Assembly: GCA_030681595.1 (NCBI GenBank)
Contig: JAUXSB010000014.1
Location: forward strand, 23,942 to 87,941
Direction: 5' to 3'
Source: Candidatus Omnitrophota bacterium
GTDB taxonomy: Bacteria; Omnitrophota; Gorgyraeia; Ghiorseimicrobiales; Ghiorseimicrobiaceae
DNA length: 64,000 nucleotides
Shown here: in pieces, positions 1 through 63,250 of the stretch
Layout of the letters: each line of letters opens with the position of its first letter
Position numbering within the stretch: the stretch's first letter is position 1
The notes under the pieces: generated by a model
What the model was told of the DNA's origin: nothing
The model's input: only the letters and a program-made list of their open reading frames with translations
Databases searched by the model: none
Translations under genes and position numbers: made by a program

Positions 1-1270
1 CATAATTCTGTGAAAAAGTAAGCAGCCCAAAAAATATTACTATTGCCGCAATGACAAGCGAAACAATACTTTTCTTTACTGCTGGGTTATTATACAGGCC
101 TTCAAATCCGCAACTGATAGCCAAAAATATGCCTATTGAAGGCAGGTACAGATAGTGCTCTGCCATGAGTGCCACAAAAACAAACGTTGACTGCGGGAAA
201 AGAAAGATTAAAAACCAGATAGCCCCGAATATAACAAACCGCTTTTTCTCCTGGCGCAATCTCCTGACGATAAATAAAAAAACAACGAATATTAACATAA
301 ATACTAAAACATCAATATCAAAAATCGCCTTTGCCGGGACTATAAACCGCTCCATATGCAGGTTAACCGGCATAACTGTCAACCCTAAATAAAGAGCCGC
401 GCCCTTTAAAAAACTGAAAAACCTGATAATATTATTCGGAGAATAAAGGCTTGCTTTTTTCCAGATAGGTATTGCGGCAAAGTTAAGGATAGTTAAGCGC
501 AAAAATATGTAGAAAATGACGATGATCAGAAACGGTAAAATTCTCTTGACCCTCGAAGACAGCTTTTCATTCTCTCTAAAAAAATACTCGTAGCAAATCA
601 AGGCAAGAGGAAAAATAATACTCATCTCTTTAGAAAATAAAGCCAGAATAAAACAGAAAATAGATAACAAATAAAAGACGCCGAATGTTTCCGTTTTCTG
701 GTTTCTGGCCTGTGCCCGAAAGGGTATTACTGGTTTCTGGTTGCTAAGATATAATATCATCGCTGATAACAAGAAAAATCCCGATAGCAAATCTGCCCTG
801 CCGGAAATATAGCTGACGCTTTCTGTATGCGCGGGATGGACAACCCAGAGAAGGGCGGTGAACAAAGGAATGATTGCGGATTGCGGATTGCGGATTGCGG
901 ATTGTTTGTCCACAAATGCTTTACTTGATACTTGATACATGATACTTGATACCAAAACATATATTAATATCGCATTTAGGATATGCAGAAGAAAATTATG
1001 TAAATGGTACCCGAAAGGGTTCAGTTTCCAGAAATGATAATCCAGCATAAAACTGAATACCTGTAGCGGGCGGTAATAATTAGTTGCGGTTTTATCCATC
1101 AGTTCCTGGGTAATAATCTTATTAAAATTACTGATGTTTTTGATTAAGCCATTACCCAGAATAAGGACTTCATCATCCCAGATAAAACCATTGCTAAAAG
1201 AATTAGCGTAGGCAAGGAGCCCCGATAAAATAATTACTGTTAACGAAATTATAAAAAATTTTCCCCGCAT
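1..1270 (-). CDS. TPR-repeat integral membrane protein, paralog of 2365..4311 (N-terminal part only; gene runs off window start)
   Basis: Minus-strand frame opens at ATG 1270..1268 (MRGKFFIISLTVIILSGLLAYANSFSNGFIWDD...YRPLQVFSFMLDYHFWKL...GYHL) and stays open to position 1 by hand translation; N-terminus parallels the 2365..4311 product. Not in ORF track because no stop within window. Contains heptamer arrays 872..953. Confidence 0.55.
   Translation of the reverse strand, partial: MRGKFFIISLTVIILSGLLAYANSFSNGFIWDDEVLILGNGLIKNISNFNKIITQELMDKTATNYYRPLQVFSFMLDYHFWKLNPFGYHLHNFLLHILNAILIYVLVSSIMYQVSSKAFVDKQSAIRNPQSAIIPLFTALLWVVHPAHTESVSYISGRADLLSGFFLLSAMILYLSNQKPVIPFRAQARNQKTETFGVFYLLSIFCFILALFSKEMSIIFPLALICYEYFFRENEKLSSRVKRILPFLIIVIFYIFLRLTILNFAAIPIWKKASLYSPNNIIRFFSFLKGAALYLGLTVMPVNLHMERFIVPAKAIFDIDVLVFMLIFVVFLFIVRRLRQEKKRFVIFGAIWFLIFLFPQSTFVFVALMAEHYLYLPSIGIFLAISCGFEGLYNNPAVKKSIVSLVIAAIVIFFGLLTFSQNY
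872..953. repeat. Two adjacent heptamer tandem arrays (GATTGCG x4 plus partial; ACTTGAT x4 with one variant) inside the coding frame
   Basis: Direct reading of sequence; absent from the aligned position of the paralog at about 3940; hand translation stays in frame across it. Confidence 0.8.
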
Positions 1271-2016: not shown

Positions 2017-2364
2017 CATGCTTTACGAATTCCTACTTTTTATACGGAATACGGCAACCCGACTACCATATCCCGACGCAACGTGGCTTTGGCTATTATC
2101 GAACGCCAAACCACTACCATCTGGCTTGTCGGAACTTAGGCTCGCGGCTTTACGCCCTATCTTTTCAGATAGTTTGCCTTTATCCCGTTAGAGGCCTTTC
2201 TAAAATATATTTATAATACCGTTTTTGGCAATACTCACCTCTAAAGGGCATATTTTCATTACATATTTCAAAGAGCTTCTGTGGCTTGGGCTATTCGGAG
2301 GCCCAACCACTGCCTTCTGGCTTGTCGATTTCTTAGCTTAAGTATACCACATAAATAAGATATT

Positions 2365-10751: not shown

Positions 10752-11588
10752 TTATTCCTTTCGTGATAATTCTTTCGCACGCTTAACTGCTGCCTTAACC
10801 GCATCGGTTAAAGTACCGCCTTTATGCAATGCTTCTAAGCCTGCTTCGGTTGTGCCGCCCTTAGAAACAATGCTCCATTTAAATTTCGAAGGCTCTTCAC
10901 CCAAAAATTGCACCGTAACCAAAGTACCAATAGCTGTTGAACGAGCTAATAGCTTAGCATCTTTCCTGTTAAAACCTATTCCTTCGGCTGCAACAGTAAA
11001 CTCTGGAATAAATACTTCTTGGCTATATTTTTCCCACTGATCTTTAGGCTTATCCTCTAGACGTTCGCACCAAAATCCCGGCCCGCTTCCGGATACCGCG
11101 GTCGCCGCATCCATCATGTCCTCGTTTAAAATTAATGTCTTTCCTAAATTATCAAATAATTTTTTAGCAAATATAACGTCTCCTTTGCTTGCGAATTTCC
11201 CCTTGCACAGACAACTCATGCCTCTACCAATTCTTGCCGGCATATTCGGCATCACCCTCACCACCCGCACGTTACCCAACTGCTTCTCAATATAATTTGT
11301 AGTTATGCCGGCGGCGATAGAAACAAATAATTTGTTTTTCCAACAATCTTTGACCTCGCCTAAAACAAAGTCAAAATCTTGAGGTTTAACAGCCAATATA
11401 ATAACATCAGCATTTTTTGCCAATTCAGAACTATTTTCTGATAACTTTACGCCTTTAAACCTATTTACCTTCTCTTTATCCTTATCAAAAACAAAAAGAT
11501 GATACTTACGCTTAATGCGTTCTGCAATCGCCGAACCCATATTTCCGGCGCCGATTATTCCAATCTTTTTCCGAAAATTTTTAAACAT
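10752..11588 (-). CDS. proC: Pyrroline-5-carboxylate reductase
   Basis: N-terminal Rossmann motif IGIIGAGNMGSA; conserved yggS-proC linkage. Confidence 0.85.
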   Translation of the reverse strand: MFKNFRKKIGIIGAGNMGSAIAERIKRKYHLFVFDKDKEKVNRFKGVKLSENSSELAKNADVIILAVKPQDFDFVLGEVKDCWKNKLFVSIAAGITTNYIEKQLGNVRVVRVMPNMPARIGRGMSCLCKGKFASKGDVIFAKKLFDNLGKTLILNEDMMDAATAVSGSGPGFWCERLEDKPKDQWEKYSQEVFIPEFTVAAEGIGFNRKDAKLLARSTAIGTLVTVQFLGEEPSKFKWSIVSKGGTTEAGLEALHKGGTLTDAVKAAVKRAKELSRKE

Positions 11589-12343
11589 CAGCTGCCAAAT
11601 ATAGCCCTTCCGATTCTAACTATTGTAGCTCCCTCTTCTATCGCCACCTTGTAATCCTGGCTCATACCCATGGACAAAATTCCCAATTCCCAATTCCCAA
11701 TTCCCAATTTAACAACAATCTTTTCCTTGAGCTCTCGTAACATCTTAAAATATGGACGGGCTTCTTCTGGATTGTTTGATAGGGGCGCTATCGTCATCAG
11801 GCCATTTATGCGGATATTTTTAAACTCGGATGCCTTTTTTATAACCTCAATCGTTTCATCGGGTTTTAACCCGAATTTTGTTTTTTCACCCGAGGTATTT
11901 ACTTCTATTAAAATATCCTGAATTTTATTTATTTTTTTAGCCTGCTTATTTATTTCCTCCGCCAAATGCTGGCTGTCCACCGAATGAATCAAATCAAAGA
12001 TCCGCACAGCCTCTTTTACCTTATTGGTCTGCAAATGGCCGATCATGTGCCATTTTAGAGTATTGCGTATTGCCTGCCCGAATGACCGCGCCCGACTGAA
12101 CGTCGTTCGGGCGGGAGTCAGGCGGGGGTGTTGGGTATTGAGTTGATTATACTTGATCAGCGCTTCCCGGACTTTATTTTCGCCGAGGTCAAATATTCCC
12201 GCGTTTATCGCTTCTTTAATCTGCGCTAAATTTGCTTCTTTGACTACCGCAATCAAGGTAATCTCGCCCGGGCTTCTTTTTACTTTCCGGCAAACAAACT
12301 CTATTTCCTCGCGTACGCGCAGGACATTCTCTTTTGGGACCAT
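11588..12343 (-). CDS. yggS: YggS/YlmE-family PLP homeostasis protein carrying two in-frame repeat insertions
   Basis: Conserved LSMGMS and HxIGHLQTNK motifs; extra segments NQLNTQHPRLTPARTTFSRARSFGQAIRNT and LGIGNWELGIL are encoded by repeat DNA. Confidence 0.8.
   Translation of the reverse strand: MVPKENVLRVREEIEFVCRKVKRSPGEITLIAVVKEANLAQIKEAINAGIFDLGENKVREALIKYNQLNTQHPRLTPARTTFSRARSFGQAIRNTLKWHMIGHLQTNKVKEAVRIFDLIHSVDSQHLAEEINKQAKKINKIQDILIEVNTSGEKTKFGLKPDETIEVIKKASEFKNIRINGLMTIAPLSNNPEEARPYFKMLRELKEKIVVKLGIGNWELGILSMGMSQDYKVAIEEGATIVRIGRAIFGS
11678..11710. repeat. Heptamer tandem array (AATTCCC x4 plus partial) inside yggS
   Basis: Direct reading; encodes LGIGNWELGIL immediately before the conserved SMGMS motif. 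Confidence 0.8.
12073..12128. repeat. GC-rich palindromic element (family shared with 30921..31050 and 62960..63120) inserted in frame in yggS
   Basis: cctgcccgaatgaccgcgcccgactgaacgtcgttcgggcgggagtcaggcggg with self-complementary arms; near-identical copies in two intergenic regions. Confidence 0.75.
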
Positions 12344-12566
12344 TTTTAAAAAGATTACGGCTCTAATTCCCTAACATCATAACACAATCTAAAAACTGGT
12401 CAATAGAAAAATGGCGCTTAAAATGAGGCGTGCAGGTAGTTTTTAACCTGCCCATAAGCTGGATTCAGAGGGTGTGAATTGTTTGGTTAGATATATCCGC
12501 CAAAAAGCATGGCGGCTTAATTAGCAGGCGCCCTTCGGGCTATATTTACGAAAACATTGGCTTTCG

Positions 12567-12843
12567 CAAGCTACTGAACCTTCAATAAATAATGGGTACA
12601 TTGGCTGTGATGATTTTGGAGCGAGACAAGGAGCGAGGACGCCGGCGTAGTCTATGCACTACGCCAAGGACGAGCGACGCAGCCGCAGCCCAAAAGCGGC
12701 CAGCCCCGAAGGGGAGGCTTAATCTTTGGCCTGCTGCTTCGTTGCTTCTCCTCTGCGTGCCGCATTGGGCACGCCTTCGTCGTCGCGCCTTGCATCAGGC
12801 TCAAACCTAAGCCTCCAATGTATCCATTATTTATTGAAGGCTC
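12567..12843. mobile_element. MITE-like element: about 29-36 bp terminal inverted repeats flanking a GC-rich non-coding core
   Basis: Left arm gaaccttcaataaataatgggtacattgg, right arm ccaatgtatccattatttattgaaggctc (near-perfect reverse complement); core is much more GC-rich than flanks. Confidence 0.5.
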
Positions 12844-12855
12844 AGTAACTACTCA

Positions 12856-14136
12856 TTAAAAATATTCGCTGTAAATATCTTTTACCCTGCCGGTTACATA
12901 AGTCAGGATATTCTTATCTGGAGATTGAAATATGGCAAGCTTTTTCTCTTTTCTCGCGTTAAAACCGTAAATAACAAGGCCTATGACTGTGCTATAAATT
13001 ACCGAGCGGTTAGAAAAAGAAAAAAGGTCCTTGCCGTAGCCAGGCTGGCTTCTTTCTGATGGAATTTTGGCCTTGGGTATCCCCAATTTAACAGGCACCC
13101 CTAAAATTGACTCTGTCAATTCAAGGAGGCCTTCCATAAGGCTCGTTCCTCCGCTCATAATAACCGGATAATCTATGCCTTTTAGGCATGGCACTACGTC
13201 AATTTTCTCTTTAAGACGGACGAGTAGCTGAGTAACCTCCGGCTCGATAATACCGGAGATCGAACGGCGTTTTATTGGTTGGTATAAATCATCTTTCCTA
13301 ACCATCACCTCTTCATTCTCTCCGATGTCTTTAGAAGTGGCCGCGCCATGGGCATCTTTAATTTCTTCGGCTAATGTAAAAGGAAGCCTCAACACTTCAG
13401 ATATGGCACTGGCGATATTATTCCCCCCATAATTAATTATTTCTGAAAAACGCAAGATATTATCTTTAAAAACCAGCACTTGTGTCAAATCCGCGCCTAT
13501 ATCAATTAAAACACACCCGCTATTTTTTAAATTCTTGTCCAAAACCGCCAGGCTCGCCGCGACCCCAGAAAATACTATGTCCTCCACTTCAAACCCGGCC
13601 TGATTTATTAACCTGACAATATTCTCGATGTGGCTGAGTTTTCCGGCTATCAAATATAAATCAACGGCCAGTTTATGGCCATACAAACCTTTGGGGTTCT
13701 CCATGTAATTATGTTCATCTAAGATATAACGATGGGAGAATTTGTGGATTATTTCCTCATCCAGCTTTAGGTTTAGAGAACAGGCTTGGGAATTAATCAA
13801 ATTTATATCGGCGTTGGTTACAATTTTATTCCCTCTGTCACAAAGCGGCATAACTGCGCCGGCACACCTCAAGATTAAATCTTTCGCATTTATGTTTACA
13901 TAGACGCGCTTTATTTTATGTTTTATCTTATCTTCAAGCGAGCCTACCGTTTGTTTTAAGGTACGGCTCGTTGATGATATGTCCGTAACTAACCCCGCGC
14001 TCATGCCGGAACTTTTTGCTCCGGCATAATCCAACAAGGAAAAATCGCCTCTTTTATCCAATACGCCTGCCGCGATTTTAATCCTGTGCGAACCTAAATC
14101 TACACCGCAAATTATATTACTGCTGTAAGAAAACAT
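12856..14136 (-). CDS. ftsA: Cell division protein FtsA (actin-like ATPase)
   Basis: 426 aa, GVDLGS N-terminal phosphate loop, MSGGTS motif; follows ftsQ. Confidence 0.85.
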   Translation of the reverse strand: MFSYSSNIICGVDLGSHRIKIAAGVLDKRGDFSLLDYAGAKSSGMSAGLVTDISSTSRTLKQTVGSLEDKIKHKIKRVYVNINAKDLILRCAGAVMPLCDRGNKIVTNADINLINSQACSLNLKLDEEIIHKFSHRYILDEHNYMENPKGLYGHKLAVDLYLIAGKLSHIENIVRLINQAGFEVEDIVFSGVAASLAVLDKNLKNSGCVLIDIGADLTQVLVFKDNILRFSEIINYGGNNIASAISEVLRLPFTLAEEIKDAHGAATSKDIGENEEVMVRKDDLYQPIKRRSISGIIEPEVTQLLVRLKEKIDVVPCLKGIDYPVIMSGGTSLMEGLLELTESILGVPVKLGIPKAKIPSERSQPGYGKDLFSFSNRSVIYSTVIGLVIYGFNARKEKKLAIFQSPDKNILTYVTGRVKDIYSEYF

Positions 14137-14899: not shown

Positions 14900-15882
14900 C
14901 AGCGCATTTTTCTATCCTGCTTGCGCGGCGTCAACGCTAAAGACAATAACTTCATGCAAAGCTGGATAAAATTTACCCCTACAGCCTGTGCTGCCTTAGG
15001 AAGAAGGCTGGTTTGCGTCATGCCGGGAATAGTATTAAGTTCTAACACAAAAAGACGGTTGGTATTATCTATTATCATATCTACGCGCGAAAATCCGTAA
15101 CAGCCCAACGCCTTATGCGCAGCCAAAGCTGTTTCTTGTACCTTGCTATAAATATCCTGCGTAAACGCTGCCGGTACTATATATTCGGTTAACCCTTTGG
15201 TGTATTTTGCCTGATAATCAAAGAATTTCCTCTTAGGGATTACCTCTACCACAGCTAGCGGTTTATCTTCCAAAATACCAACGGTGCATTCACGCCCCTG
15301 TATATATTCTTCTATTAAAACGTTCTCATCATGGACAAACGCTTCCCTCAAGGCCGGCCATAGATCCTTCTCCTCTTCGACAATACTTAAACCTATACTT
15401 GAACCGGAAGTTGCCGGCTTGACTACTACGGGGAATTTTCCAAGTTTTTTCTTAAAAGGAATATTTTTGTTTACTATTTCTGCCTCCGGTACAGAAAGCC
15501 CGGCCTCCTTAAACCTTTTCCGCGCAGCTATCTTGTCTAAGGCTAACCTGCTGGCTTCTATTCCGGATCCGGTATACGGAACCCGCATTTCCTGGAGTAG
15601 TTTTTGTACTGTCCCGTCTTCGCCGAACTTTCCATGCAAAGCGATAAAAGCTATTTTAATCCGCGCTTTTTCGATCTGCGTACGCGCCTTTCCTGAATCG
15701 CTTTCGGTGATATCTAAAACTACCACGTCTAAATTTGAAGACTTAAACGCTTCAAATACAGCCGAGCCTGATTTCAGGGAAATCTCCCTCTCCGAGGAAG
15801 GCCCGCCCATTAATACGCCAATCCTTCCAAACTGATTCTTAGTTCTTGGTTCTTGTTTCTTAATCCTGCCTGCTACGGCCAT
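14899..15882 (-). CDS. ddl: D-alanine--D-alanine ligase
   Basis: ATP-grasp motifs; GVLMGGPSSEREISLKSG N-terminus typical of Ddl. Confidence 0.9.
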   Translation of the reverse strand: MAVAGRIKKQEPRTKNQFGRIGVLMGGPSSEREISLKSGSAVFEAFKSSNLDVVVLDITESDSGKARTQIEKARIKIAFIALHGKFGEDGTVQKLLQEMRVPYTGSGIEASRLALDKIAARKRFKEAGLSVPEAEIVNKNIPFKKKLGKFPVVVKPATSGSSIGLSIVEEEKDLWPALREAFVHDENVLIEEYIQGRECTVGILEDKPLAVVEVIPKRKFFDYQAKYTKGLTEYIVPAAFTQDIYSKVQETALAAHKALGCYGFSRVDMIIDNTNRLFVLELNTIPGMTQTSLLPKAAQAVGVNFIQLCMKLLSLALTPRKQDRKMR

Positions 15883-16832
15883 ATCTTTATCTCCGGCTCA
15901 AGCTCGACATTAAACTTATTCTTAACTTTTCTTCTTATTAAAGACATAAGGCGCAGTACGTCGCCTGCCTTGGCGTTACCGTTATTAAAAATAAAATTAG
16001 CATGTTTTAACGAAACAAACGCCCCACCGATAGACTTACCTTTTAGCCCGCATAAATCAATCAGGCGGCCTGCGCTTTCGTTTAAAGAAGGATTCTTAAA
16101 AATACACCCTGCTGAAGAGCATGATAGATCTTGCGTCATCCTGCGCCTGCTTAAATATTTATCAATATCCTCTTTTATCTTTTCCCTGTTTCTTTTCTTC
16201 AGCTTTAACGTCGCGTTTAAAATTACATACCCGGAAAGATTCGATGTGCGATAGCCGAAATCTAAATTTTTTTTATTTATCAGTTTAATATTGCCGTTGT
16301 AATCCATAACTGTTATATCCTCAACCAAATCTCCGATGCTCTTAGTCTTTGTCTTACCGTTTTTAATTTTTAATTTTTCATTTTTAATTACGGTTGCTAT
16401 GCCCGCATTCATCGCTAACGCGCCGCCGAATGTCCCCGGGATACCGCTTAGGAATTCTAAGCCGCCCAAATTGAAACTACGCGCTCTCCCCAATAAAAAA
16501 GTAAGCCTGGCGCCGGCACCGCATAAAATTTTGTTTTTCTTTGCTTCTATCTTTTTAAAATATCCCCTGTTCAAACTTATTACTATGCCCTTTATGCCCG
16601 CATCTAAGCCAAGAATATTACTCCCTGCGCCTATGATAAATAGCGGGATATTTTTTTTCTTGGCAACTCTTATTACAGAGGCCAGCTCCTTAAGGTTCCC
16701 CGGCTCAACCCAGAACTCTGCCGGCCCGCCGATTCTAAAAGTGGTATGCTCAGCAAGCGGTTCATTAAATTTTACCCCGTTAGGGATAAATTCCCCAATA
16801 CTATAAATTAAATCCTTGCGTTTTTCATTCAT
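15873..16832 (-). CDS. murB: UDP-N-acetylenolpyruvoylglucosamine reductase
   Basis: FAD-binding N-terminus (TTFRIGGPAEFW), C-terminal GGAFVS...HANFIFN region. Confidence 0.9.
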   Translation of the reverse strand: MNEKRKDLIYSIGEFIPNGVKFNEPLAEHTTFRIGGPAEFWVEPGNLKELASVIRVAKKKNIPLFIIGAGSNILGLDAGIKGIVISLNRGYFKKIEAKKNKILCGAGARLTFLLGRARSFNLGGLEFLSGIPGTFGGALAMNAGIATVIKNEKLKIKNGKTKTKSIGDLVEDITVMDYNGNIKLINKKNLDFGYRTSNLSGYVILNATLKLKKRNREKIKEDIDKYLSRRRMTQDLSCSSAGCIFKNPSLNESAGRLIDLCGLKGKSIGGAFVSLKHANFIFNNGNAKAGDVLRLMSLIRRKVKNKFNVELEPEIKIWP

Positions 16833-20410: not shown

Positions 20411-21571
20411 TCATGGATATTCTCCCGATCTTGAAATATTTAGCAATAAACCTACGCAGATCATATCAAAAATCAGGGACGTCCCACCATAACTGATAAA
20501 AGGAAGAGGCAAGCCCTTGGTAGGCAAAAAACCCAAGGAGGCGCCGATGTTTATGCAGACTTTAAGGCCTATCATGGAAAGAATACCCAGGCTTAACAAT
20601 TTCCCGAATGTATCAGGAGTATTACAGTAAATTAAAACCGCCTGCCAAATAAACATTATAAAAAGCGTAATTACCAAAAGCGCGCCAAGTAAGCCCAATT
20701 CTTCGACAATGATAGAAAATATGAAATCCGTATGCGCGGCAGGAAGATAAAATAGCTTTTGTTTACTTTGGCCGAGGCCGAGGCCAAAAACTCCTCCTGA
20801 AGCCAAAGCAATCTGAGACTGTATCAGCTGAAATCCGCTTCCTTTAGGATCGAGCCACGGATTTAAAAAGGCTAAAACCCTCGCCCTGCGGTAAGGAACC
20901 CTGAATATTAATAGATAAAGCGCGGGGATCGAAATAAAAGCACATAAGCCGATATAAGAAAGGCTTACACCGGAAACAAAAAGCATAATAAAGGCAATCA
21001 CAACCAATAAAAAAGCAGTCCCCAAATCAGGCTGTATCAATACTAACAGGCTTGCGCTTGCTAAAAGTAATAACGGCGGCACAAAACCCCGCCAGAAATC
21101 AAAAATTAAATTTTTCTTGCGGGAGATAAAATCTGCCAGATAGATAATCAGGCTTACCTGCATTAACTCAGACGGCTGGAAACTAAAACCAAAAGCCTTA
21201 AACCAGCGTTTTGCCCCTCCTGCCTCCCTGCCCAATATTAAAACCAACACCAGTAAAAACAAAGACACAACAAATAGCGGCTTGGCATATCTACGAAGCA
21301 GCTTATAATCAAAGCTCATCGCCAAAAGCATAAATAGGCACCCGATGCCTACATAGAGAAGCTGTCTTTTTAAATAATAGTTCGTATCTCCCAAAGTTTC
21401 CCATGCATAAATAGAGGACGCGCTGTAAATCATTACTATCCCGATACAAACAAGAAAAAACGTAATTAAAAATAATGAAATCCTTATGTTACGCATAGTT
21501 AAATAATAACGCTTCAAGCTGCAGGCTTCAGGCTCCAGGCTAAAACCTTTACAGCTTGGAGTTTGCAGCAT
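20411..21571 (-). CDS. ftsW: Lipid II flippase / SEDS protein FtsW (probable true start near 21496)
   Basis: 10-TM SEDS family sequence; the first 25 codons of the ORF are encoded by an intergenic hairpin, so MRNIRISLF is the likelier start. Confidence 0.85.
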   Translation of the reverse strand: MLQTPSCKGFSLEPEACSLKRYYLTMRNIRISLFLITFFLVCIGIVMIYSASSIYAWETLGDTNYYLKRQLLYVGIGCLFMLLAMSFDYKLLRRYAKPLFVVSLFLLVLVLILGREAGGAKRWFKAFGFSFQPSELMQVSLIIYLADFISRKKNLIFDFWRGFVPPLLLLASASLLVLIQPDLGTAFLLVVIAFIMLFVSGVSLSYIGLCAFISIPALYLLIFRVPYRRARVLAFLNPWLDPKGSGFQLIQSQIALASGGVFGLGLGQSKQKLFYLPAAHTDFIFSIIVEELGLLGALLVITLFIMFIWQAVLIYCNTPDTFGKLLSLGILSMIGLKVCINIGASLGFLPTKGLPLPFISYGGTSLIFDMICVGLLLNISRSGEYP

Positions 21572-25599: not shown

Positions 25600-27129
25600 T
25601 TATTTATTTTCTCCCGGTATAGACGCTCCGCTAAAAGCGGAGCTATCTCTAACGGGGTAAACATTCTTATACCGTCTATCTAATATTTTTTTTACTGCTT
25701 GCCTATCATCAAAATGAACCATCTTGTCCTTAAATATCTGATATTGCTCATGGCCCTTTCCGGCAATAAGCACTATATCTTCTTCTTCGGCTGCTAACAA
25801 AGCCTTCTCTATTGCGATAAACCTGTCCTCTATAACTATAAAATTTTCTTTCGTAAATCCGGAGGCGATTTCTTCTATTATTTTTACGGGATTTTCATTC
25901 CTGGGGTTATCAGAAGTAATAACCGCTAAATCCGATAAAGAAGATGCCACGTAACCCATCTTGGGCCTTTTAGTGCGGTCTCTGTCCCCGCCGCAGCCGA
26001 ATACAAGAATAATCTTCCGGTGCTTGATTTTTGACAAAGAAGTTAAAACATTCTTTAAGGCATCCTCAGTGTGCGCGTAATCAACAAAGACACTAAAAGG
26101 GTATTCGCCCTTAATTCTTTCGAGGCGGCCTTCCACTTTCTCTAATTTATATATACCATCCTGTATATGCTCTTTCGCAATGCCTTCCGACAACGAAACA
26201 GCAATAGCAGACAATATATTATAAACATTGTGTTTGCCGATAAGCCTGGTTCTAACCTTAAATTCTTCTTTCTGCGCCACAACTCTAAATTCTGTGCCGT
26301 CTAAACTTAAGCTTAAATCTTTAGCGCGCACATCCGCCTTATTATCTATGCCATAAGTAACTATAGCGGTATCGGTACGCTCGACCAATTTCAGCCCACA
26401 TTCGTCATCGATGTTAATTATTGCGCAGGCCTGTTTATTAAGCATTTTAAAAAGTTTTGCCTTTGCCTCAAAATAATAAAGCCTGTTTTTATGATAATCA
26501 AGATGGTCGGAAGTTAAATTCGTAAATACCGCATACTTAAAATCAATACCCCTGACGCGTTCCTGTTCCAGGGAATGGCTTGAAACTTCCAAAGCGCAGT
26601 AATCAACCATAGAATCTCTCATTTCAGAAAGCAGCGATTGTAAGAATGCGGCATCGGGAGTAGTATTGGGCGCGGGGATTGCCTTATCGTTAAAATGATA
26701 ATTTATAGTGCCGATTACGCCGCAATTAAAACCCGCCTGCCTTAAGATACTCTCTAAAAGATAAGTAACGGTGGTTTTGCCGTTGGTGCCGGTTACACCG
26801 ACACATTTTACTTTTCGCGAAGGGTAATTATAAAATTTTCCGGCTAAATCCGCGAATGCCCTGCGCACATCTTCAACTTTTATGAAGGGCACATTTTTTA
26901 CCGGTGACCGGTGACCGGTGACCGATGACTGAATAACTATCGCCACTGCCCCTCTCTTTATCGCTTCATCAATAAAATTATTCCCATCCAGTTGCGCCCC
27001 CTTAACCGCCACAAATAAAAACCCTTCCCGCACATTACGGGAATCAGGTGTAACACCTTTTATCTCAATACCGGATAAACCATCCGCCTCTGCCACGCCT
27101 ATCTTATCTATCAACTCTTTTAATCGCAT
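25600..27129 (-). CDS. murE: UDP-N-acetylmuramoyl-L-alanyl-D-glutamate--2,6-diaminopimelate (or lysine) ligase
   Basis: GVTGTNGKTT P-loop and DNPR motif; contains an in-frame CCGGTGA heptamer array and a palindromic unit at its 3' end. Confidence 0.9.
   Translation of the reverse strand: MRLKELIDKIGVAEADGLSGIEIKGVTPDSRNVREGFLFVAVKGAQLDGNNFIDEAIKRGAVAIVIQSSVTGHRSPVKNVPFIKVEDVRRAFADLAGKFYNYPSRKVKCVGVTGTNGKTTVTYLLESILRQAGFNCGVIGTINYHFNDKAIPAPNTTPDAAFLQSLLSEMRDSMVDYCALEVSSHSLEQERVRGIDFKYAVFTNLTSDHLDYHKNRLYYFEAKAKLFKMLNKQACAIINIDDECGLKLVERTDTAIVTYGIDNKADVRAKDLSLSLDGTEFRVVAQKEEFKVRTRLIGKHNVYNILSAIAVSLSEGIAKEHIQDGIYKLEKVEGRLERIKGEYPFSVFVDYAHTEDALKNVLTSLSKIKHRKIILVFGCGGDRDRTKRPKMGYVASSLSDLAVITSDNPRNENPVKIIEEIASGFTKENFIVIEDRFIAIEKALLAAEEEDIVLIAGKGHEQYQIFKDKMVHFDDRQAVKKILDRRYKNVYPVRDSSAFSGASIPGENK
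26901..26928. repeat. Heptamer tandem array (CCGGTGA x3 plus variant) inside murE
   Basis: Direct reading; translated as SSVTGHRSPV within the N-terminal domain. Confidence 0.8.
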
Positions 27130-30889: not shown

Positions 30890-31250
30890 TCCTATTGCTT
30901 CAAGCGAAAAATGCAAACTTGCCGCGCCCGACCTGCCCGAATGACCGCGCCCGACTAGATGTCGTTCGGGCGAGAGTCAGGCGGGCTGAATGTCGTTCGG
31001 GCGGGCGCTTATTTTTCGCGCGATGCCCCGCCACAAAGCGTTGGCGGGCAGGCCGCGAATCCTTTAAATGAAACCATAAGTTATGGAAGCCTAAAGGCGA
31101 CATAACTTATTTGGTTGAATTTATCCCGATACTTGCAAGAAAATTTAGAATAAATTTTTGCAGTGTTTTAGTATCGGGGGCGGCACAATGGAAAAATTAA
31201 ACCTAACTTTATGTATTACAATGGATAGAATATGGCTGAGATTGTACGTT
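30890..31250. repeat. Composite intergenic repeat: GC-rich palindromic units (30921..31050) plus two-hairpin module (31076..31178)
   Basis: Near-identical to 62940..63250; module related to the leaders at 52686..52934, 54032..54268 and 62214..62370. Confidence 0.7.
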
Positions 31251-34202: not shown

Positions 34203-34483
34203 TAAATCATCTCCATTTCATAATCAAGCAACACAGCACCATTAACATCGGAAGTAAAATCCACTATTTTAGACAGAGTGCTGTTTACTAAACCAGAATA
34301 AGGCCCGATACAGGCAAAAGCCAAAAGTGTTACCTGCCATTTATCCTGATGGTCTGCTTCCATAACCGAAACGTTAAAATTATTACGCACCCTGTCTTTT
34401 ATGCTTTTTAGCACCATTCTCTTTCTCTTTAGAGAATTACTCTTTGGAATCTGCAGCTTAAGTTTTAATATGCCGACTACCAT
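34202..34483 (-). CDS. DUF503-family (YlxP-like) protein
   Basis: 93-aa protein at the position YlxP-like proteins occupy next to rbfA. Confidence 0.55.
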   Translation of the reverse strand: MVVGILKLKLQIPKSNSLKRKRMVLKSIKDRVRNNFNVSVMEADHQDKWQVTLLAFACIGPYSGLVNSTLSKIVDFTSDVNGAVLLDYEMEMI

Positions 34484-35819
34484 GTTCTTTTATAAATTTA
34501 ATTTCTTCGTTTTTATCTTTAACTACTTTATCTATTTTGGCGTATAATGCCTTAACTAACATCTCCTTAAAATGCGGCCCCGGCACAAAACCCAGCTCCT
34601 TTAAATCGCTTCCGTCAACAGCAAGCCTTATACCGTTATGCACAAACAGATACTCATTTATTTTTTTTATTATATCAGATTTATTTTGTTTAGCCATTAT
34701 TAAAACTATCACTTCAAAACTCAATGGCTCAAGCAAATGATAAACGCTGGACGGCCTGATATTCTTTTCAGAAAGGCGTTTTATAACTTCACTGTGGCTG
34801 TCAAAATAAGAAACAATACGCTTAGTATCGCCCCTGGCAAAAGCAAAATCAGCACAAATCTTTTTCACTGCCTCTAAATCCAAACCGTCTAATAAACCAA
34901 TAAGGAAAATGAGCCATGAATCCAAAACCCTTTTTTTGGGGTGATGCTTCCTAAAAATCATGACGGCCTTATTAAGCTTTCTCAAAAAATCAAGCTTTAC
35001 GCCGCTTAACCTGATTCCTGTGTCAATAAAAGAAAAACCGTAAAGTTTACGGATAGAACTGATTACTTTTAAAGGCCTGTCTTCTTTAAGCATTAAAATA
35101 AGCTCATCTCTTAGCCTGTGTTTAGTGACTTTGTTTAACGCGTCTTCCTTCCTTGCCGCTTTAAAAAGCTGAAGGGTTTTTCTTTCCAGGCTAAACCCGT
35201 ACCTTTCCCCAAAGCGTATTGCCCTCAGCATCCGCGTAGGGTCGTCCGCAAAACTTAAGCTGTGTAAAACACGGATCCTCTTTCTTTTTAAATCGGCTAT
35301 TCCGCTAAAATAATCAGAGAGCTTCCCAAAATTATGCTTACTTATAGTAACCGCCATGGCATTAATGCTAAAATCCCGCCGCAGGAGGTCATCGTATATT
35401 GAACCGCCAGACACAACCGGCAAAGCCCCCGGCCTTGCGTATGTTTCTTTTCTCGCTGTGGCGATATCAATTTTCTTGTGGTTAGGCAGTGTCAATACGG
35501 CGGTTCCGAACCTTTTATGCTTTATCAGGCGCGCGCCAAGAACTTCCGCTAATTTCTCCGCAAATAATATCCCGTCCATCTGAACGCCTTCGCTATGGTG
35601 AGCCTGCCCGACTTCTCTGTGGCGAGCCTGCTCGACTTCTCTGTGGCGAGCCTCAATTACAATGTCCAAATCTAAATTCGGCCTGCGTAAAAGCATATCC
35701 CGCACAAACCCGCCAACTAAATAGGCGTGGACATCCATGCTATCCGCTAAACTACCGGCTTTTTTAATTACCGATAAAATATCTTTCGGCAGCAATTTTA
35801 TTTTACTTTCTAAATTCAC
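34458..35819 (-). CDS. CCA-adding enzyme / poly(A) polymerase-family tRNA nucleotidyltransferase with in-frame tandem repeat
   Basis: GGFVRDMLL plus DLDIV nucleotidyltransferase motif; repeat region translates as ARHREVEQARHREVGQAHH. Confidence 0.75.
   Translation of the reverse strand: MNLESKIKLLPKDILSVIKKAGSLADSMDVHAYLVGGFVRDMLLRRPNLDLDIVIEARHREVEQARHREVGQAHHSEGVQMDGILFAEKLAEVLGARLIKHKRFGTAVLTLPNHKKIDIATARKETYARPGALPVVSGGSIYDDLLRRDFSINAMAVTISKHNFGKLSDYFSGIADLKRKRIRVLHSLSFADDPTRMLRAIRFGERYGFSLERKTLQLFKAARKEDALNKVTKHRLRDELILMLKEDRPLKVISSIRKLYGFSFIDTGIRLSGVKLDFLRKLNKAVMIFRKHHPKKRVLDSWLIFLIGLLDGLDLEAVKKICADFAFARGDTKRIVSYFDSHSEVIKRLSEKNIRPSSVYHLLEPLSFEVIVLIMAKQNKSDIIKKINEYLFVHNGIRLAVDGSDLKELGFVPGPHFKEMLVKALYAKIDKVVKDKNEEIKFIKEHGSRHIKT
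35596..35654. repeat. 21-nt tandem duplication (about 2.5 copies) inside the CCA-enzyme gene
   Basis: gtggcgagcctgc(c/t)cgacttctct repeated in tandem; in frame. Confidence 0.75.
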
Positions 35820-37464: not shown

Positions 37465-40747
<3,283 letters not shown>

Positions 40748-52445: not shown

Positions 52446-52685
52446 TTACTCAATAATATCTCCTATTACCGGTTCAACCACTACTCCGGCTTTTTCCAAA
52501 AATTTAATTCCTTTCTGCAGGTTTTCCTCTTTACCGTCTAATTCCAAGACTATCTCGCCGATTTTATCGGTTACCCGCGCTCTTCTAATATTCGGCATCA
52601 CGTCAAATTTCTTCGCCATCTGAAAAGTCAAAGGCTGTTTTATGGTTTCGCCGGTAAAAGTAAGTTTTACGATTTTTTTAGCCAT
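52446..52685 (-). CDS. Stand-alone NIL-domain protein
   Basis: VKLTFTGETIKQPL...FDVMPNIRRARV...GEIVLELDG...VVVEPVIG parallels the NIL domain at the C-terminus of MetN. Confidence 0.7.
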   Translation of the reverse strand: MAKKIVKLTFTGETIKQPLTFQMAKKFDVMPNIRRARVTDKIGEIVLELDGKEENLQKGIKFLEKAGVVVEPVIGDIIE

Positions 52686-52934
52686 TATTTATCCTTTCAA
52701 TGAGCGCATAACTTACGAATACACAGTATGAGTAAGTTATTTGCGCGAATTGATGCCGAAAGCTACGGGAAAATTTAGTATAAATTTTCGCAGTGTTTTG
52801 CTTTCGGCGCAATGCATAACTTACGAATACACAGTATGAGTAAGTTATTTGCGCGAATTAATCCCGATAGCTACAAGAAAATTTAGTATAAATTTTCGCA
52901 GTGTTTTGCTATCGGGGCCAATTAAATATTCCTG
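52686..52934 (-). promoter_or_regulatory. Two tandem copies of a two-hairpin leader module immediately upstream of the NIL gene start
   Basis: Each copy: hairpin ataacttac-N15-gtaagttat, then GC-clamped stem (gccgaaagc/gctttcggc in copy 1, cccgatagc/gctatcggg in copy 2) enclosing AT palindrome gaaaatttagtataaattttc; ends in the Shine-Dalgarno context of the gene. Confidence 0.55.
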
Positions 52935-53750: not shown

Positions 53751-54031
53751 TATTCTGAACCTCCGGCTATAGCAGGGATAATTGATACTTCATCATTATT
53801 TTTCAATTCTGTGTCATATCCTTTTAAAAAACGGATATCTTCGTTGTTGACATAAAAGTTAATGAAACGGCGGATTTTACCGTTTTCGTCGCAAATCCTT
53901 GCTTTTACCCCGGGGAAACGTTTTTCCAGATCATCCACCAGTTCATTAATATTACCTGCTTCAACTTCTACCTCTACCTTATTCTGCGTCAATTTCTGCA
54001 GGGGTGCCGGGATTCTCACTTTTATAGACAT
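53750..54031 (-). CDS. ThiS/MoaD-like sulfur-carrier protein with 2-residue extension beyond Gly-Gly (..IAGGSE)
   Basis: 93-aa protein ending AGG-SE; stop overlaps the ThiF/MoeB start. Confidence 0.65.
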   Translation of the reverse strand: MSIKVRIPAPLQKLTQNKVEVEVEAGNINELVDDLEKRFPGVKARICDENGKIRRFINFYVNNEDIRFLKGYDTELKNNDEVSIIPAIAGGSE

Positions 54032-54268
54032 ATTTTTATCCTTTCAATGAGCGCATAACTTACGAATACACAGTATGAGTAAGTTATTTGCGCGAATTGA
54101 TGCCGAAAGCTACGAGAAAATTTACAATAAATTTTCGAGCGTTTTGCTTTCGGCGCAATGCATAACTTACGAATACACAGTATGAGTAAGTTATTTGCGC
54201 GAATTGATGCCAAAGCCTACGCAATCCCGAAATTTCAGGACAAGCGTTTAGGCAAGGGGCGCTACCAT
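54032..54268 (-). promoter_or_regulatory. Leader module (one full copy plus a partial second copy) immediately upstream of the sulfur-carrier gene
   Basis: Same ataacttac/gtaagttat hairpin and gccgaaagc/gctttcggc stem around palindrome gaaaatttacaataaattttc. Confidence 0.55.
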
Positions 54269-61487: not shown

Positions 61488-62213
61488 TTAAATTCCCGCG
61501 CCCTGGGTGTTTGTCTTAAGCGGCCGGGTGTGTATGCCGCATTCGCCACCGCATTTTGAAGTGCCTATCCAGCGGCCGGAACGCTCGTTTTCATCGCTTG
61601 AAATATGTGTGCATGGTGCGCATCCCAATGAACGGTATCCCGCCGCGTAAAGCGGGTTAACAAGGACTTGATATAAAGCCAAGTACTGCCAAACTTCGCG
61701 CTCTTTCCAGATTAATATAGGATTAAGCTTAACTAACCCCTTATCCCTTTCCTCCACTTCCTTATAGTCAGTGCGGGTCCTGCCTTCGGTGCAGCGTAGC
61801 CCCGTTACCCAACATGTTACATGCATTTCTTCTACAGCACGCTTTACCGGCTCAACCTTAAGTATATCGCAGCATTTATCCGGATCGGTTTTATAAAGGT
61901 CATTTGAAATTTGGGCATGGCTTTCATAAACTTTTAATTCCGGATAACGGGCCACGGCTTCATGCATAAACTTTTTGGTCTCCGCCGGCTTAAATCTGGT
62001 AGTAACAATAAACCCCTTTATCTTCGGGTTTACCTTTTTGGCTAAATCCCAGACTGCTACCGAATCCTTACCTAAACTGTTTGCTACGACTAAACCATCC
62101 TTATACTTTTTATAAGCCTCTTCGATAAGCGCAAGCGACCTATCTACTTTCTCTTTAAAGTTTAGCTTCTCCACCAATTCCTTTAAATCATCCTTGTTGT
62201 TTAATAAACTCAT
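61488..62213 (-). CDS. cysH: APS/PAPS reductase-family protein (with CC...CxxC cysteine signature)
   Basis: PP-loop-like SLGKDS, C-terminal ECGIH motif, Cys pairs (KCC, CAPC); probable start MSLLNNK, since the ORF-track N-terminus runs through the leader repeat. Confidence 0.8.
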   Translation of the reverse strand: MSLLNNKDDLKELVEKLNFKEKVDRSLALIEEAYKKYKDGLVVANSLGKDSVAVWDLAKKVNPKIKGFIVTTRFKPAETKKFMHEAVARYPELKVYESHAQISNDLYKTDPDKCCDILKVEPVKRAVEEMHVTCWVTGLRCTEGRTRTDYKEVEERDKGLVKLNPILIWKEREVWQYLALYQVLVNPLYAAGYRSLGCAPCTHISSDENERSGRWIGTSKCGGECGIHTRPLKTNTQGAGI

Positions 62214-62370
62214 TTTACTTTTCCTTTCAATGAGCGCATAACTTACGAATACAGAGTATGAGTAAGTTATTTGCGCGAATTGATGCCGAAAGCTACGAGA
62301 AAATTTACAATAAATTTTCGAGCGTTTTGCTTTCGGCGCAATGCATAATCCCGAAGCTTCGGGATTACAG
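62214..62370 (-). promoter_or_regulatory. Leader module upstream of cysH, followed by the atcccgaagcttcgggat palindrome
   Basis: Same two-hairpin architecture and Shine-Dalgarno context as at 52686 and 54032. Confidence 0.55.
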
Positions 62371-62952: not shown

Positions 62953-63250
62953 GCGAAAAATGCAAACTTGCCGCGCCCGACCCGCCTGACTTCATTCGGG
63001 CAGGCTGAATGTCGTTCGGGCGGGCGCTTATTTTTCGCGCGATGCCCCGCCACAAAGCCCGCCACTAAAACATCAGCGGGTTCGCCTAAGATTTGTGGCG
63101 AACGTTGGCGGGCAGGCGCAAATACTTTAAATGAAACCATAAGTTATGGAAGCCTAAAGGCGACATAACTTATTTGGTTGAATTTATCCCGATACTTGCA
63201 AGAAAATTTAGAATAAATTTTCGCGGTGTTTTAGTATCGGGGCGCGGCGC
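62940..63250. repeat. Composite intergenic repeat (GC-rich palindromic units plus two-hairpin module), second copy of the 30890..31250 element
   Basis: Long stretches identical to 30900..31190; module stem cccgatact/agtatcggg around palindrome aaaatttagaataaatttt. Confidence 0.7.

Follow-up and report, generated by a model that had tools for sequence, protein, structure and literature searches.

The stretch of DNA analysed here (the window: 64,000 nt of contig JAUXSB010000014.1 from a Candidatus Omnitrophota bacterium) contains a gene of the YggS/PLPBP family, yggS, for a pyridoxal phosphate (PLP) homeostasis protein, and two repeats lie within its coding sequence, a nested GC-rich hairpin and a perfect heptamer array (Table 1). 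The open reading frame (ORF) scored 171.8 bits against TIGR00044, the curated cutoff of which is 106.25, and is thereby placed in this family; it also matches Pfam Ala_racemase_N, and its top relatives in the PDB are YggS/PLPBP chains (6kzw, E 4.4e-37). A protein with 100% identity (P0001; orthologs are cited here by such numbers) is recorded once in NCBI, from a metagenome-assembled genome (MAG) of Candidatus Omnitrophota. The gene order ftsA - yggS - proC - methylthioadenosine (MTA) phosphorylase is kept in relatives. The comparison set comprised 119 Omnitrophota YggS proteins, on which the AlphaFold model of the window protein was also built. This model has a confident TIM-barrel-like fold with a mean predicted local distance difference test score (pLDDT) of 89.8. 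The invariant residues of YggS are all retained in the window protein, K35 and S224-M227 being invariant across the 119 orthologs. The statement of the first-pass annotation, a reading of the sequence made without database searches, that the frame stays open across the repeats is thus borne out.

The GC content of the hairpin is 72%, compared with a window average of about 41%. In its architecture, one hairpin module (P2) is nested in the loop of another (P1). Folded as single-stranded DNA (ssDNA), the plus strand of the 54 nt reaches -16.7 kcal/mol (z -3.2) and the minus strand -13.8 kcal/mol (z -1.7). The element is read in frame within YggS as ..PRLTPARTTFSRARSFGQ.., which includes ..PARTTFSRAR.., and it contains no stop codon. 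The closest orthologs, P0002 and P0004 (71-63% identity, 231-236 aa), are uninterrupted at the hairpin junction (..CAACACC|CAATAC..). In the DNA alignment, ..GCAACACC|CAATACAG.. of P0004 stands against ..CCAACACC[54 nt]CAATACGC.. of the window, and both protein and DNA alignments give the window gene exactly 54 extra bases, equal to 18 codons, relative to P0002 and P0004. No target-site duplication was found in the comparison of the empty and filled yggS sites. By these alignments, 12073..12126 is a true in-frame insertion, and the earlier proposal that a GC-rich palindrome is translated in frame inside YggS is upheld, with its limits and its length of 18 residues now defined. An origin as a MITE, a miniature transposable element bearing inverted repeats, derived from an insertion sequence (IS) was also considered, and the absence of a target-site duplication at the yggS site speaks against it.

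The pLDDT falls below 50 at residues 76-93 alone; these correspond exactly to the inserted codons and are located between helix 58-71 and strand 97-100. The insert is therefore modelled as a low-confidence loop, and its 18 residues are predicted to form a disordered surface loop that leaves the YggS fold unaffected. With a length divisible by three and no stop in the frame used, the hairpin would be tolerated in yggS. In the sequence of events that we propose, the nested hairpin would have been inserted without target duplication, its mobility passing through a single-stranded or structure-specific intermediate, and the 54 nt would then simply be translated as an 18-residue disordered loop. 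We consider it probable that 12073..12126 is a non-autonomous mobile GC-rich nested hairpin, resembling repetitive extragenic palindromic (REP) sequences and Rickettsia palindromic elements (RPEs), and that it resides in a YggS surface loop as a tolerated passenger, not as an adaptation.

Table 1. yggS, its repeats and the related hairpin copies, by position in the window.
Feature	Position	Strand	Remark
yggS (PLP homeostasis protein, YggS/PLPBP family)	11588..12343	minus	intact ORF, 251 aa
Perfect array of heptamers, (AATTCCC)x4.6; coding strand reads (GGGAATT)n (site 2)	11678..11709	minus	100% matches in Tandem Repeats Finder (TRF); encodes LGIGNWELGIL
Pair of degenerate heptamer units (coding strand xCAATAC), one side of hairpin (site 1)	12059..12072	minus	half of the site-1 array encoding ..LNTQ..
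Nested GC-rich hairpin insertion, 54 nt	12073..12126	plus	encodes YggS residues 76-93 (18 aa) on the minus strand
Outer module P1, long arm CCTGCCCGAATGAC	12073..12086	plus	read from sequence; arm pair abundant in metagenome contigs
Inner module P2, CGCGCCCGAC-TGAAC-GTCGTTCGGGCGGG	12087..12115	plus	one base off the 29-nt form CCCGCCCGACTGAACGTCGTTCGGGCGGG of many phyla
Outer module P1, short arm GTCAGGCGGG	12117..12126	plus	arm pair as in metagenome contigs
Two degenerate heptamer units, other side of hairpin (site 1)	12127..12140	minus	from the DNA alignment with orthologs
Intergenic nested copy: outer P2 hairpin around the same 54-nt P1/P2 composite	30921..31008	plus	composite 30932..30985, 93% identical
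Intergenic nested copy: outer P2 hairpin around inverted P1, without inner P2	62970..63027	plus	rearranged; related core ~62981..63004

Two heptamer-coded sites in yggS

The loop that received the hairpin (site 1) is itself coded by about four degenerate (x)CAATAC heptamers, which give LNTQY.I.NT, and the hairpin of the window sits between units 2 and 3. The same site holds an uninterrupted four-unit array in P0002 and P0004 and (GGAATGC)x5 in P0005. Other GC-rich palindromes occupy it elsewhere: 21 nt in P0003 (CCTGTCTGCCGACAAGGCAGG), ending in GGCAGG|CAATAC like the window element; about 57 nt with CCCTGCCCG..GGCAGGCGGG in P0023; a palindrome of its own in P0019; and two inverted heptamer arrays in P0015. 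The loop is enlarged in about 22 of the 119 orthologs and is longest in the window protein (30 aa, against a modal length of 12). Many of the enlarged loops read L-P-x-G-R-Q-A-G, which is the translation of CCTGCC..GGCAGG, and the inserts differ from one another in peptide sequence and length. In Bifidobacterium YggS (3cpg) the site-1 loop is 20 residues longer. A neighbour-joining tree of the YggS orthologs, built on conserved columns, did not place the palindrome carriers together: P0003 falls outside the group in which the window protein is sister to P0006 and the insert-free P0002 and P0004. Because the tree separates the carriers, site 1 would either have gained palindromes repeatedly or have lost them precisely, and either course indicates mobility together with a permissive or preferred site. 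Judged from the sequences at hand, site 1 is an insertion hotspot of the whole phylum.

Such recurrence, extending to about 22 of 119 Omnitrophota proteins and to Bifidobacterium, might also be taken as a sign of co-option, in which the extra loop alters the function of YggS or a hairpin in the mRNA regulates the translation or stability of yggS-proC. The open frame and the stability of the 54-nt hairpin would agree with this. Nevertheless, we regard co-option as improbable, given that the site-1 inserts are unrelated in peptide sequence and length, the inserted segment is predicted to be disordered, the closest relatives are without the hairpin and members of the family are translated within unrelated proteins in differing frames and orientations, as described below.

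The AATTCCC array near the SMGMS motif (site 2) proved to be of a different nature. The first-pass annotation had treated it as a second insertion, adding LGIGNWELGIL. The array is present, with 4.6 perfect copies, but the addition is not: the orthologous segment is held by all 119 Omnitrophota proteins, and the stretch that connects the last long helix with the SMGMS strand measures 17 aa in 96 of the 119 and 18 aa in the window protein. Nor is the segment lineage-specific, as had been supposed, because PDB orthologs from unrelated bacteria align through it (query 196-249 with chain 171-222, two extra residues being found in the window protein) and so carry equivalent residues. In the AlphaFold model, LGIGNWELGIL runs from where helix 192-213 ends, through a short loop, into the beginning of strand 222-225, at a pLDDT of about 82. 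At the DNA level, the units of site 2 are perfect GGGAATT in the window, degenerate GGxAATT in P0005 (where the protein has nearly the same GIGNWEL), GGGATTT x4 in P0023, alternating GCGAATT/GCGATTT in P0019 and AATACGC-like in P0002 and P0004. Most orthologs display a 7-residue periodicity here, for example ELRVTSYELRVL, FGIWDLGFGIL, TLHITPYTLHIL or MPYAICHMPYL. The alignments identify the array of site 2 as a repeat-encoded orthologous segment and not as an insertion. Since the orthologs encode the same position in different heptamer units, it is thus a long-lived simple-sequence repeat in a structural connector, which appears to have been homogenised lineage by lineage.

Repeats of period 7 are also frequent in the remainder of the window. 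When exact tandem arrays of at least 2.5 copies were counted, seven had period 7, compared with 0.0 in block shuffles, and periods 5, 6 and 8-12 gave 0-2 arrays each. Additional imperfect period-7 arrays were detected by TRF, mostly in long ORFs and read in frame. The arrays located in ORFs, with 3.7-4.9 copies of different units, lie at 872..904, 922..952, 26900..26929, 37904..37937, 21511..21541, 15836..15861 and 16360..16389; two of them are 18 nt apart in one ORF. Their peptides include QSAIRNPQSAI, SVTGHRSPV and one that is signal-peptide-like. Long prokaryotic simple-sequence repeats (SSRs) show an excess of heptanucleotides, for which polymerase slippage has been proposed (Mrazek 2007, as summarised in PMC4679880), and Geobacter metallireducens possesses four-heptamer elements that are both inter- and intragenic (PMC2700814). 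Slipped-strand mispairing, with the prokaryotic bias towards 7-nt units, would be the simplest account of the heptamer arrays. Selection would retain only the in-frame states of an array, spaced by 21 nt or three units, and each lineage would homogenise its units on its own. The frame survives only if the net change amounts to three units (21 nt), which fits the narrow range of 4.3-4.9 copies. At yggS, an origin of the arrays from target-site duplications or 7-nt footprints was rejected because no duplication appeared between the empty and filled sites; for arrays elsewhere, such an origin may still apply.

The hairpin in the window and across phyla

Three dispersed loci of the hairpin element occur in the 64-kb window, so that it has the multi-copy character of REP sequences and of their paired hairpin-forming derivatives (REPINs). 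The composite at 30932..30985 differs from the yggS hairpin at 4 of 54 positions, where 0 matches of this quality are expected by chance; it lies 18.8 kb from the yggS hairpin, and the rearranged copy lies 50.9 kb from it. Both are found upstream of paralogous 145/146-aa ORFs and both are intergenic, in agreement with the earlier placement of intergenic copies at 30921..31050 and 62960..63120, within which they have now been delimited. The P2 modules of the window (inner 12087 and ~30946; outer 30921 and 62970) share one plus-strand orientation. GC skew is negative in nearly every 1-kb bin of the window, and almost all long ORFs are on the minus strand. Single matches to a 9-mer arm, at 7288, 8942, 10283, 17959, 29011, 35603 and 45706, have no partner arm and were treated as chance.

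The two modules were sought separately beyond the window. For P2, one genome per GTDB species was scanned with the pattern CGCCCGAC-N(3-33)-GTCGTTCGGGCG, which gave at least 117 loci, the genomes covered lying outside Omnitrophota. For P1, metagenome contigs were scanned with CCTGCCCGAATGA-N(1-31)-GTCAGGCGG, which gave at least 120 loci. About 20 of the P2 matches listed, in high-GC genomes, are chance-like; the remaining ones extend past the pattern as CCCGCCCGAC-loop-GTCGTTCGGGCGGG, and in many of them the 29-mer CCCGCCCGACTGAACGTCGTTCGGGCGGG recurs unchanged. Among the matches listed, the hosts of P2 are low-GC Patescibacteria of many classes, Bacteroidota, Ignavibacteriales, Chlorobiaceae and Planctomycetota, and the carriers include the complete genomes of a Chitinophagaceae isolate (MMS25-I14, CP197396) and of an Imperialibacter (NZ_CP180355), as well as Zeaxanthinibacter enoshimensis DSM 18435. 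P1, CCTGCCCGAATGAC-loop-GTCAGGCGGG, is, like P2, abundant in low-GC lineages, Patescibacteria, Bacteroidota and Ignavibacteriales among them. The two modules have a common architecture, in which an outer GC stem, with four additional bases on its long arm (TTCG/CGAA), encloses an inner YGAC/GTCR stem, and the loop is variable. Among 28 distinct 36-nt copies of P2, pair 11-22 of the inner stem is TA in 22 and CG in 5, and pair 13-20 is AT in 17 and GC in 5. This covariation supports the bulged register, even if the changes may reflect few independent events. P1 and P2 are often nested in one another's loops. Flanks complementary to each other are enriched 2-3 fold around the hairpins, which is a tendency only, and the rule that a hairpin always occupies the loop of another palindrome was therefore rejected. 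Taken together, the scans indicate that the hairpin family spans phyla and is not specific to this genome. Among 2.9 million viral contigs, 8 matches to P2 and 0 to P1 were found, and the idea of a phage vector was rejected. A text search of the open-access literature found the P1 and P2 sequences in no paper, and the open-access literature on Omnitrophota tandem repeats and on palindromes of the Candidate Phyla Radiation (CPR) yielded no description of the hairpins. In one group of low-GC metagenome contigs (L141, L152, L155, L160 with 3 copies, L163, L217, L218 and L235; L numbers denote loci), the P1 hairpin lies within a larger conserved repeat (..GAATAGGAAT..ATATT[hairpin]GTGTTTGTTTACT..), present in several copies per contig about 2.5 kb apart.

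Translation of the hairpin is not peculiar to yggS. Among the matches listed, 25 of 97 low-GC copies of P2 lie in long open frames, and matches to Pfam domains extend across the insert or adjoin it in SecA, EF-P, TGT, PurA, TsaD and PolA (DNA polymerase I); carB is a further host gene. The RPE analogy drawn in the first-pass annotation is apt in this respect, since in-frame insertion with the host protein kept is found in yggS and in these six. Among the same matches, 14 copies are bordered immediately on either side by 90 or more open codons, and each of these has a length divisible by three (30, 36, 54 or 57 nt), whereas this holds for 60 of all 97 low-GC P2 copies, and the common 29-nt form never occurs between such open frames. 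The probability of 14 in 14 by chance is about 0.62^14, approximately 0.001. The peptides of the inserts vary in frame and orientation (PARTTVQSGG, ARPNDRSVGRG, and PPERPESSGRAG with PPERP..), and the use of several frames and orientations argues against a selected peptide.

These lengths bear directly on the possibility that the hairpin is removed or bypassed at the level of RNA or translation. Mitochondria of Magnusiomyces bypass GC-rich hairpins in AT-rich coding sequence, which counts in favour of this possibility. Under bypass or splicing, however, the length of an insert is free of the reading frame, whereas the genic copies are exclusively multiples of three and stop-free. Therefore, translation is favoured over bypass, and the lengths argue likewise against splicing. 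Excision of hairpins from tRNA contexts, moreover, restores no tRNA, which speaks against removal. An assembly artefact could be imagined because MAG assemblies can misplace repeats, but the family is also present in complete isolate genomes, and a local quasi-palindrome is excluded by the 93%-identical copy elsewhere in the window. Bypass or removal, artefact and local origin together appear scarcely credible, and a translated mobile insertion is retained as the explanation.

Hairpins and heptamers coincide beyond yggS. After in-silico excision, 8 of 220 hairpin junctions fell in a period-7 array, compared with 4 of 2150 random positions at the same loci (among the matches listed), and in several cases (L199, L050, L230 and yggS of the window) the array continues in phase across the hairpin. 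The hairpin loci contain 23 period-7 arrays per 639 kb and 43 per 770 kb, so that period 7 exceeds all the other periods between 5 and 12; the loci of the high-GC chance matches contain one per 185 kb, a comparison confounded by base composition. The repeats may be preferred targets of the hairpins, owing to slipped loops, or may partly be products of the same machinery. A perfect ATTGAAC array of 136 nt and 19 copies forms the end of a hairpin-bearing Ferruginibacter contig (L043, 1..136), and GCTGAAA x6 lies between Omnitrophota genes in L125 (5919..5960).

Several other repeats were noted in the window. A family of intergenic repeats of about 108 nt, some in tandem, is located at 52675..52926, 54022..54220, 62205..62348, 31054..31179 and 63117..63242; in each repeat an AT-rich core is flanked by a pair of hairpins (CATAACTTAC..GTAAGTTAT and GCCGAAAGC..GCTTTCGGC), and two members directly adjoin the intergenic GC-hairpin copies. 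The ftsA-yggS spacer is 512 nt long in the window, compared with 24-284 nt at seven orthologous loci, and is occupied by an element of about 290 nt (12565..12855) with terminal inverted repeats of about 34 nt (GTAGTTACTGAGCCTTCAATAAATAATGGATACATTGG...) and a long GC-rich imperfect hairpin. Folding of the surrounding spacer as RNA (481 nt, 12380..12860) gives -205 kcal/mol (z -9.3), and the element looks like a MITE or a structured RNA. Rfam gave no match for it, an E-value search of 12340..12870 returning noise only. Over the whole window, the Rfam scan at gathering threshold found one c-di-GMP-I riboswitch and one tRNA, and nothing at the yggS hairpin or array. The riboswitch lies at 2050..2188 on the minus strand (67 bits, gathering cutoff 35), and a 33-nt direct repeat (2099..2131 and 2295..2327) suggests a second, tandem aptamer-like copy. 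A 24-nt tandem repeat at 35588..35653 (2.8 copies, 90%), containing CCTGCCCGA and read in frame as EARHREVEQARHREVGQAHH, lies in an ORF resembling CCA-adding enzyme/poly(A) polymerase (34458..35819, minus) and is another repeat-encoded insert in a housekeeping gene.

Candidate mobilising enzymes

Two types of enzyme may be considered as candidates for the mobilisation of the hairpins, a small SLX1/UPF0213-like GIY-YIG nuclease and an IS200-like Y1 transposase, both unproven. Insertion without duplication, together with stable folding of one strand with G-T pairs, fits a single-strand or structure-specific mechanism and hence either candidate alike.

In the first case, the hairpins would serve as the cis element of a mobile cassette centred on a small stand-alone, structure-specific GIY-YIG nuclease, and yggS would carry a solo hairpin. 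Loops in single-stranded or cruciform DNA (T and D loops of tRNA, slipped repeats, hairpin loops) would be cut by this nuclease, and hairpins, accompanied by the gene or not, would be installed there. We consider this possible but doubtful. Of about 215 low-GC loci among the matches listed, about 24, of both P1 and P2, have a GIY-YIG gene (~80-95 aa; PF01541 67 bits) ~0-200 nt from the hairpin, and about 11% of the hairpin copies are situated at most 300 nt from such a gene. Its protein has relatives in the UPF0213 family and, at a weaker level, among the SLX1 structure-specific endonucleases. A layout recurs, in which an intact tRNA and the GIY-YIG gene are accompanied by a duplicated tRNA fragment interrupted by the hairpin. 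The hairpin is positioned in the T-loop (GGTTC|GAxTC) in 11 cases and in the D-loop (GGTA|GAGC) in 8, and also in the anticodon arm. The nesting of hairpins in each other's loops is likewise in favour. On the other hand, about 89% of the hairpins listed have no GIY-YIG gene nearby, 10 of 35 GIY-YIG genes in the hairpin loci have no arm of the family within 300 nt, complementary flanks are in general enriched just 2-3 fold, and the gene is absent from the window. The co-location could also stem from the accumulation of both elements in dispensable tRNA-fragment DNA. We know of no biochemical precedent for a GIY-YIG enzyme that inserts DNA, and this too was counted against the nuclease.

The arrangement resembles a homing cassette for tRNA loci and was observed in L114 (3880..4262) and in L146, L181, L215, L135, L178, L024 and L048, which belong to Patescibacteria, Bacteroidota and related contigs; the duplicated piece is a partial tRNA plus trailer. 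The hairpins were also considered as interrupters of functional CPR tRNA genes, which was rejected because in-silico excision restored no tRNA and the contexts are 5' or 3' fragments beside intact tRNAs. A reading of these contexts as group I or II introns was likewise set aside, since the paper on tRNA introns of Patescibacteria describes no such hairpins. With the same reserve as above, P1 and P2 could be the dispersed non-autonomous form of an undescribed cross-phylum system, the autonomous unit of which would be a GIY-YIG gene of about 85 aa homing beside tRNAs with a hairpin-plugged fragment. If this is true, loop cutting by the nuclease would explain the nesting of the hairpins, their insertion in slipped heptamers and the clean in-frame insertions in housekeeping genes from Patescibacteria and Bacteroidota to Omnitrophota, and the nuclease might also contribute to the heptamer arrays.

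The second candidate would make the hairpins classical REP/REPIN elements, mobilised via ssDNA by a REP-associated tyrosine transposase (RAYT), an IS200-like Y1 HUH enzyme. The hairpins are imperfect palindromes, short and rich in GC, that share a conserved asymmetric bulge, and the yggS insertion is clean, without target duplication, as in IS200/IS605-type transposition. In four loci among the matches listed, an IS200-like Y1_Tnp gene and the hairpin are ~0.7-2.1 kb apart, and the protein of L051 (PF01797, 39 bits) has REP_Tyr_transpos as its best NCBIfam match. Intragenic REP dimers encoding 20-30 aa are documented (PMC3733652), and the search pattern is antisense in most of the 14 genic copies and in the yggS copy. 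The Y1_Tnp genes, however, are not flanked by hairpins, the NCBIfam score in L051 (NF047646, 43.6 bits) is below the cutoff of 80, and no Y1 transposase gene is present in the window. The GTAG/CGTC tag is not conserved: GTAG is missing, and CGTC is confined to the 29-nt form, where it lies in the loop, with AGTC or GGTC in others. Moreover, REP-RAYT systems are normally lineage-specific, whereas the hairpins are near-identical across phyla. For these reasons, a RAYT-driven origin seems unlikely.

Meaning of the insertion and comparison with known systems

Some observations weigh against a mobile passenger hairpin beside slippage-derived arrays. Neither a GIY-YIG nor a Y1_Tnp gene was found in the 64-kb window by tblastn with RAYT-like and GIY-YIG proteins. 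Only three loci of the element are present in the window, and the 7% divergence of the full copies gives no sign of recent activity, so that the activity of the family suggested in the first-pass annotation is not borne out by it. The neutrality of the 18-aa loop is read from predicted disorder and from the variety of the site-1 inserts. Slippage by one or two heptamers would shift the frame of yggS, and homogenisation without broken alleles is left unexplained. A causal link between hairpins and arrays, through footprints or target preference, may also exist. We nevertheless hold to the tolerated mobile hairpin as the probable account: taken by itself, the yggS locus would fit the known REP- or RPE-like kind, with a mechanism that we infer from sequence.

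The yggS locus offers a natural example of a conserved enzyme that tolerates a disordered insert of 18 residues, and it marks a permissive loop of YggS/PLPBP. The family is of wider interest, because a near-identical bulged GC hairpin of 27-36 nt is found in distant low-GC phyla, is repeatedly translated in essential genes such as secA, polA, tgt, efp and carB, and often occurs together with a tiny GIY-YIG gene and with tRNA fragments that are interrupted. If the link to the nuclease is causal, it would represent a new way of moving DNA, and the hairpins would also confound gene calling, tRNA finding and protein alignment in MAGs of CPR bacteria and Bacteroidota. YggS segments rewritten in different heptamers across the phylum present an unusual and testable case of concerted evolution of a frame-breaking coding repeat.

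Among known systems, REP and REPIN elements are short (20-40 nt) GC-rich imperfect palindromes, multi-copy and mostly extragenic (Di Nocera et al. 2013, PMC3733652; Bertels & Rainey 2011, PMC3116915). The hairpins share with them the occasional in-frame genic copies, the compound forms and the tolerance of G-T pairs on one strand. Unlike REP and REPIN elements, their modules are nested in loops instead of lying side by side, they have no GTAG/CGTC tag and no flanking RAYT was found in the window or at the loci listed; they often adjoin GIY-YIG genes, and they are near-identical over many phyla, not confined to one lineage. As with RPEs, the palindrome stands in frame in conserved genes and is translated as an extra surface segment, the host protein remaining intact. 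RPE-1, however, is 100-150 bp long and restricted to Rickettsia, whereas the hairpin unit is 27-36 nt (54 nt when nested) and cross-phylum; the likeness noted here is one of behaviour. The host is a free-living or episymbiotic low-GC lineage, and its place in Omnitrophota makes membership of the RPEs implausible. The GC clusters and byps of yeast mitochondria are small mobile GC-rich hairpins in an AT-rich genome, found in intergenic DNA and in RNA and protein genes. These organellar byps are not multiples of three and are skipped by the ribosome, whereas the genic hairpins described here are multiples of three and evidently translated.

The heptamer arrays resemble heptanucleotide SSRs (Mrazek 2007 via PMC4679880; PMC2700814; cyanobacterial short tandemly repeated repetitive sequences, STRR) in having about 4-5 copies, many units per genome, inter- and intragenic positions and a dominant period of 7. 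They differ from the described SSRs in that they code for enzyme segments of conserved length, are rewritten in each lineage and lodge hairpins above chance. Finally, as in free-standing GIY-YIG homing endonucleases (Seg-like), a small GIY-YIG gene lies beside a duplicated piece of its presumed tRNA target. In contrast to the Seg-like enzymes, the protein comprises ~80-95 aa and lacks a DNA-binding domain, a conserved GC hairpin occupies a fixed position in a loop of the duplicated target fragment, and solo hairpins are dispersed genome-wide.

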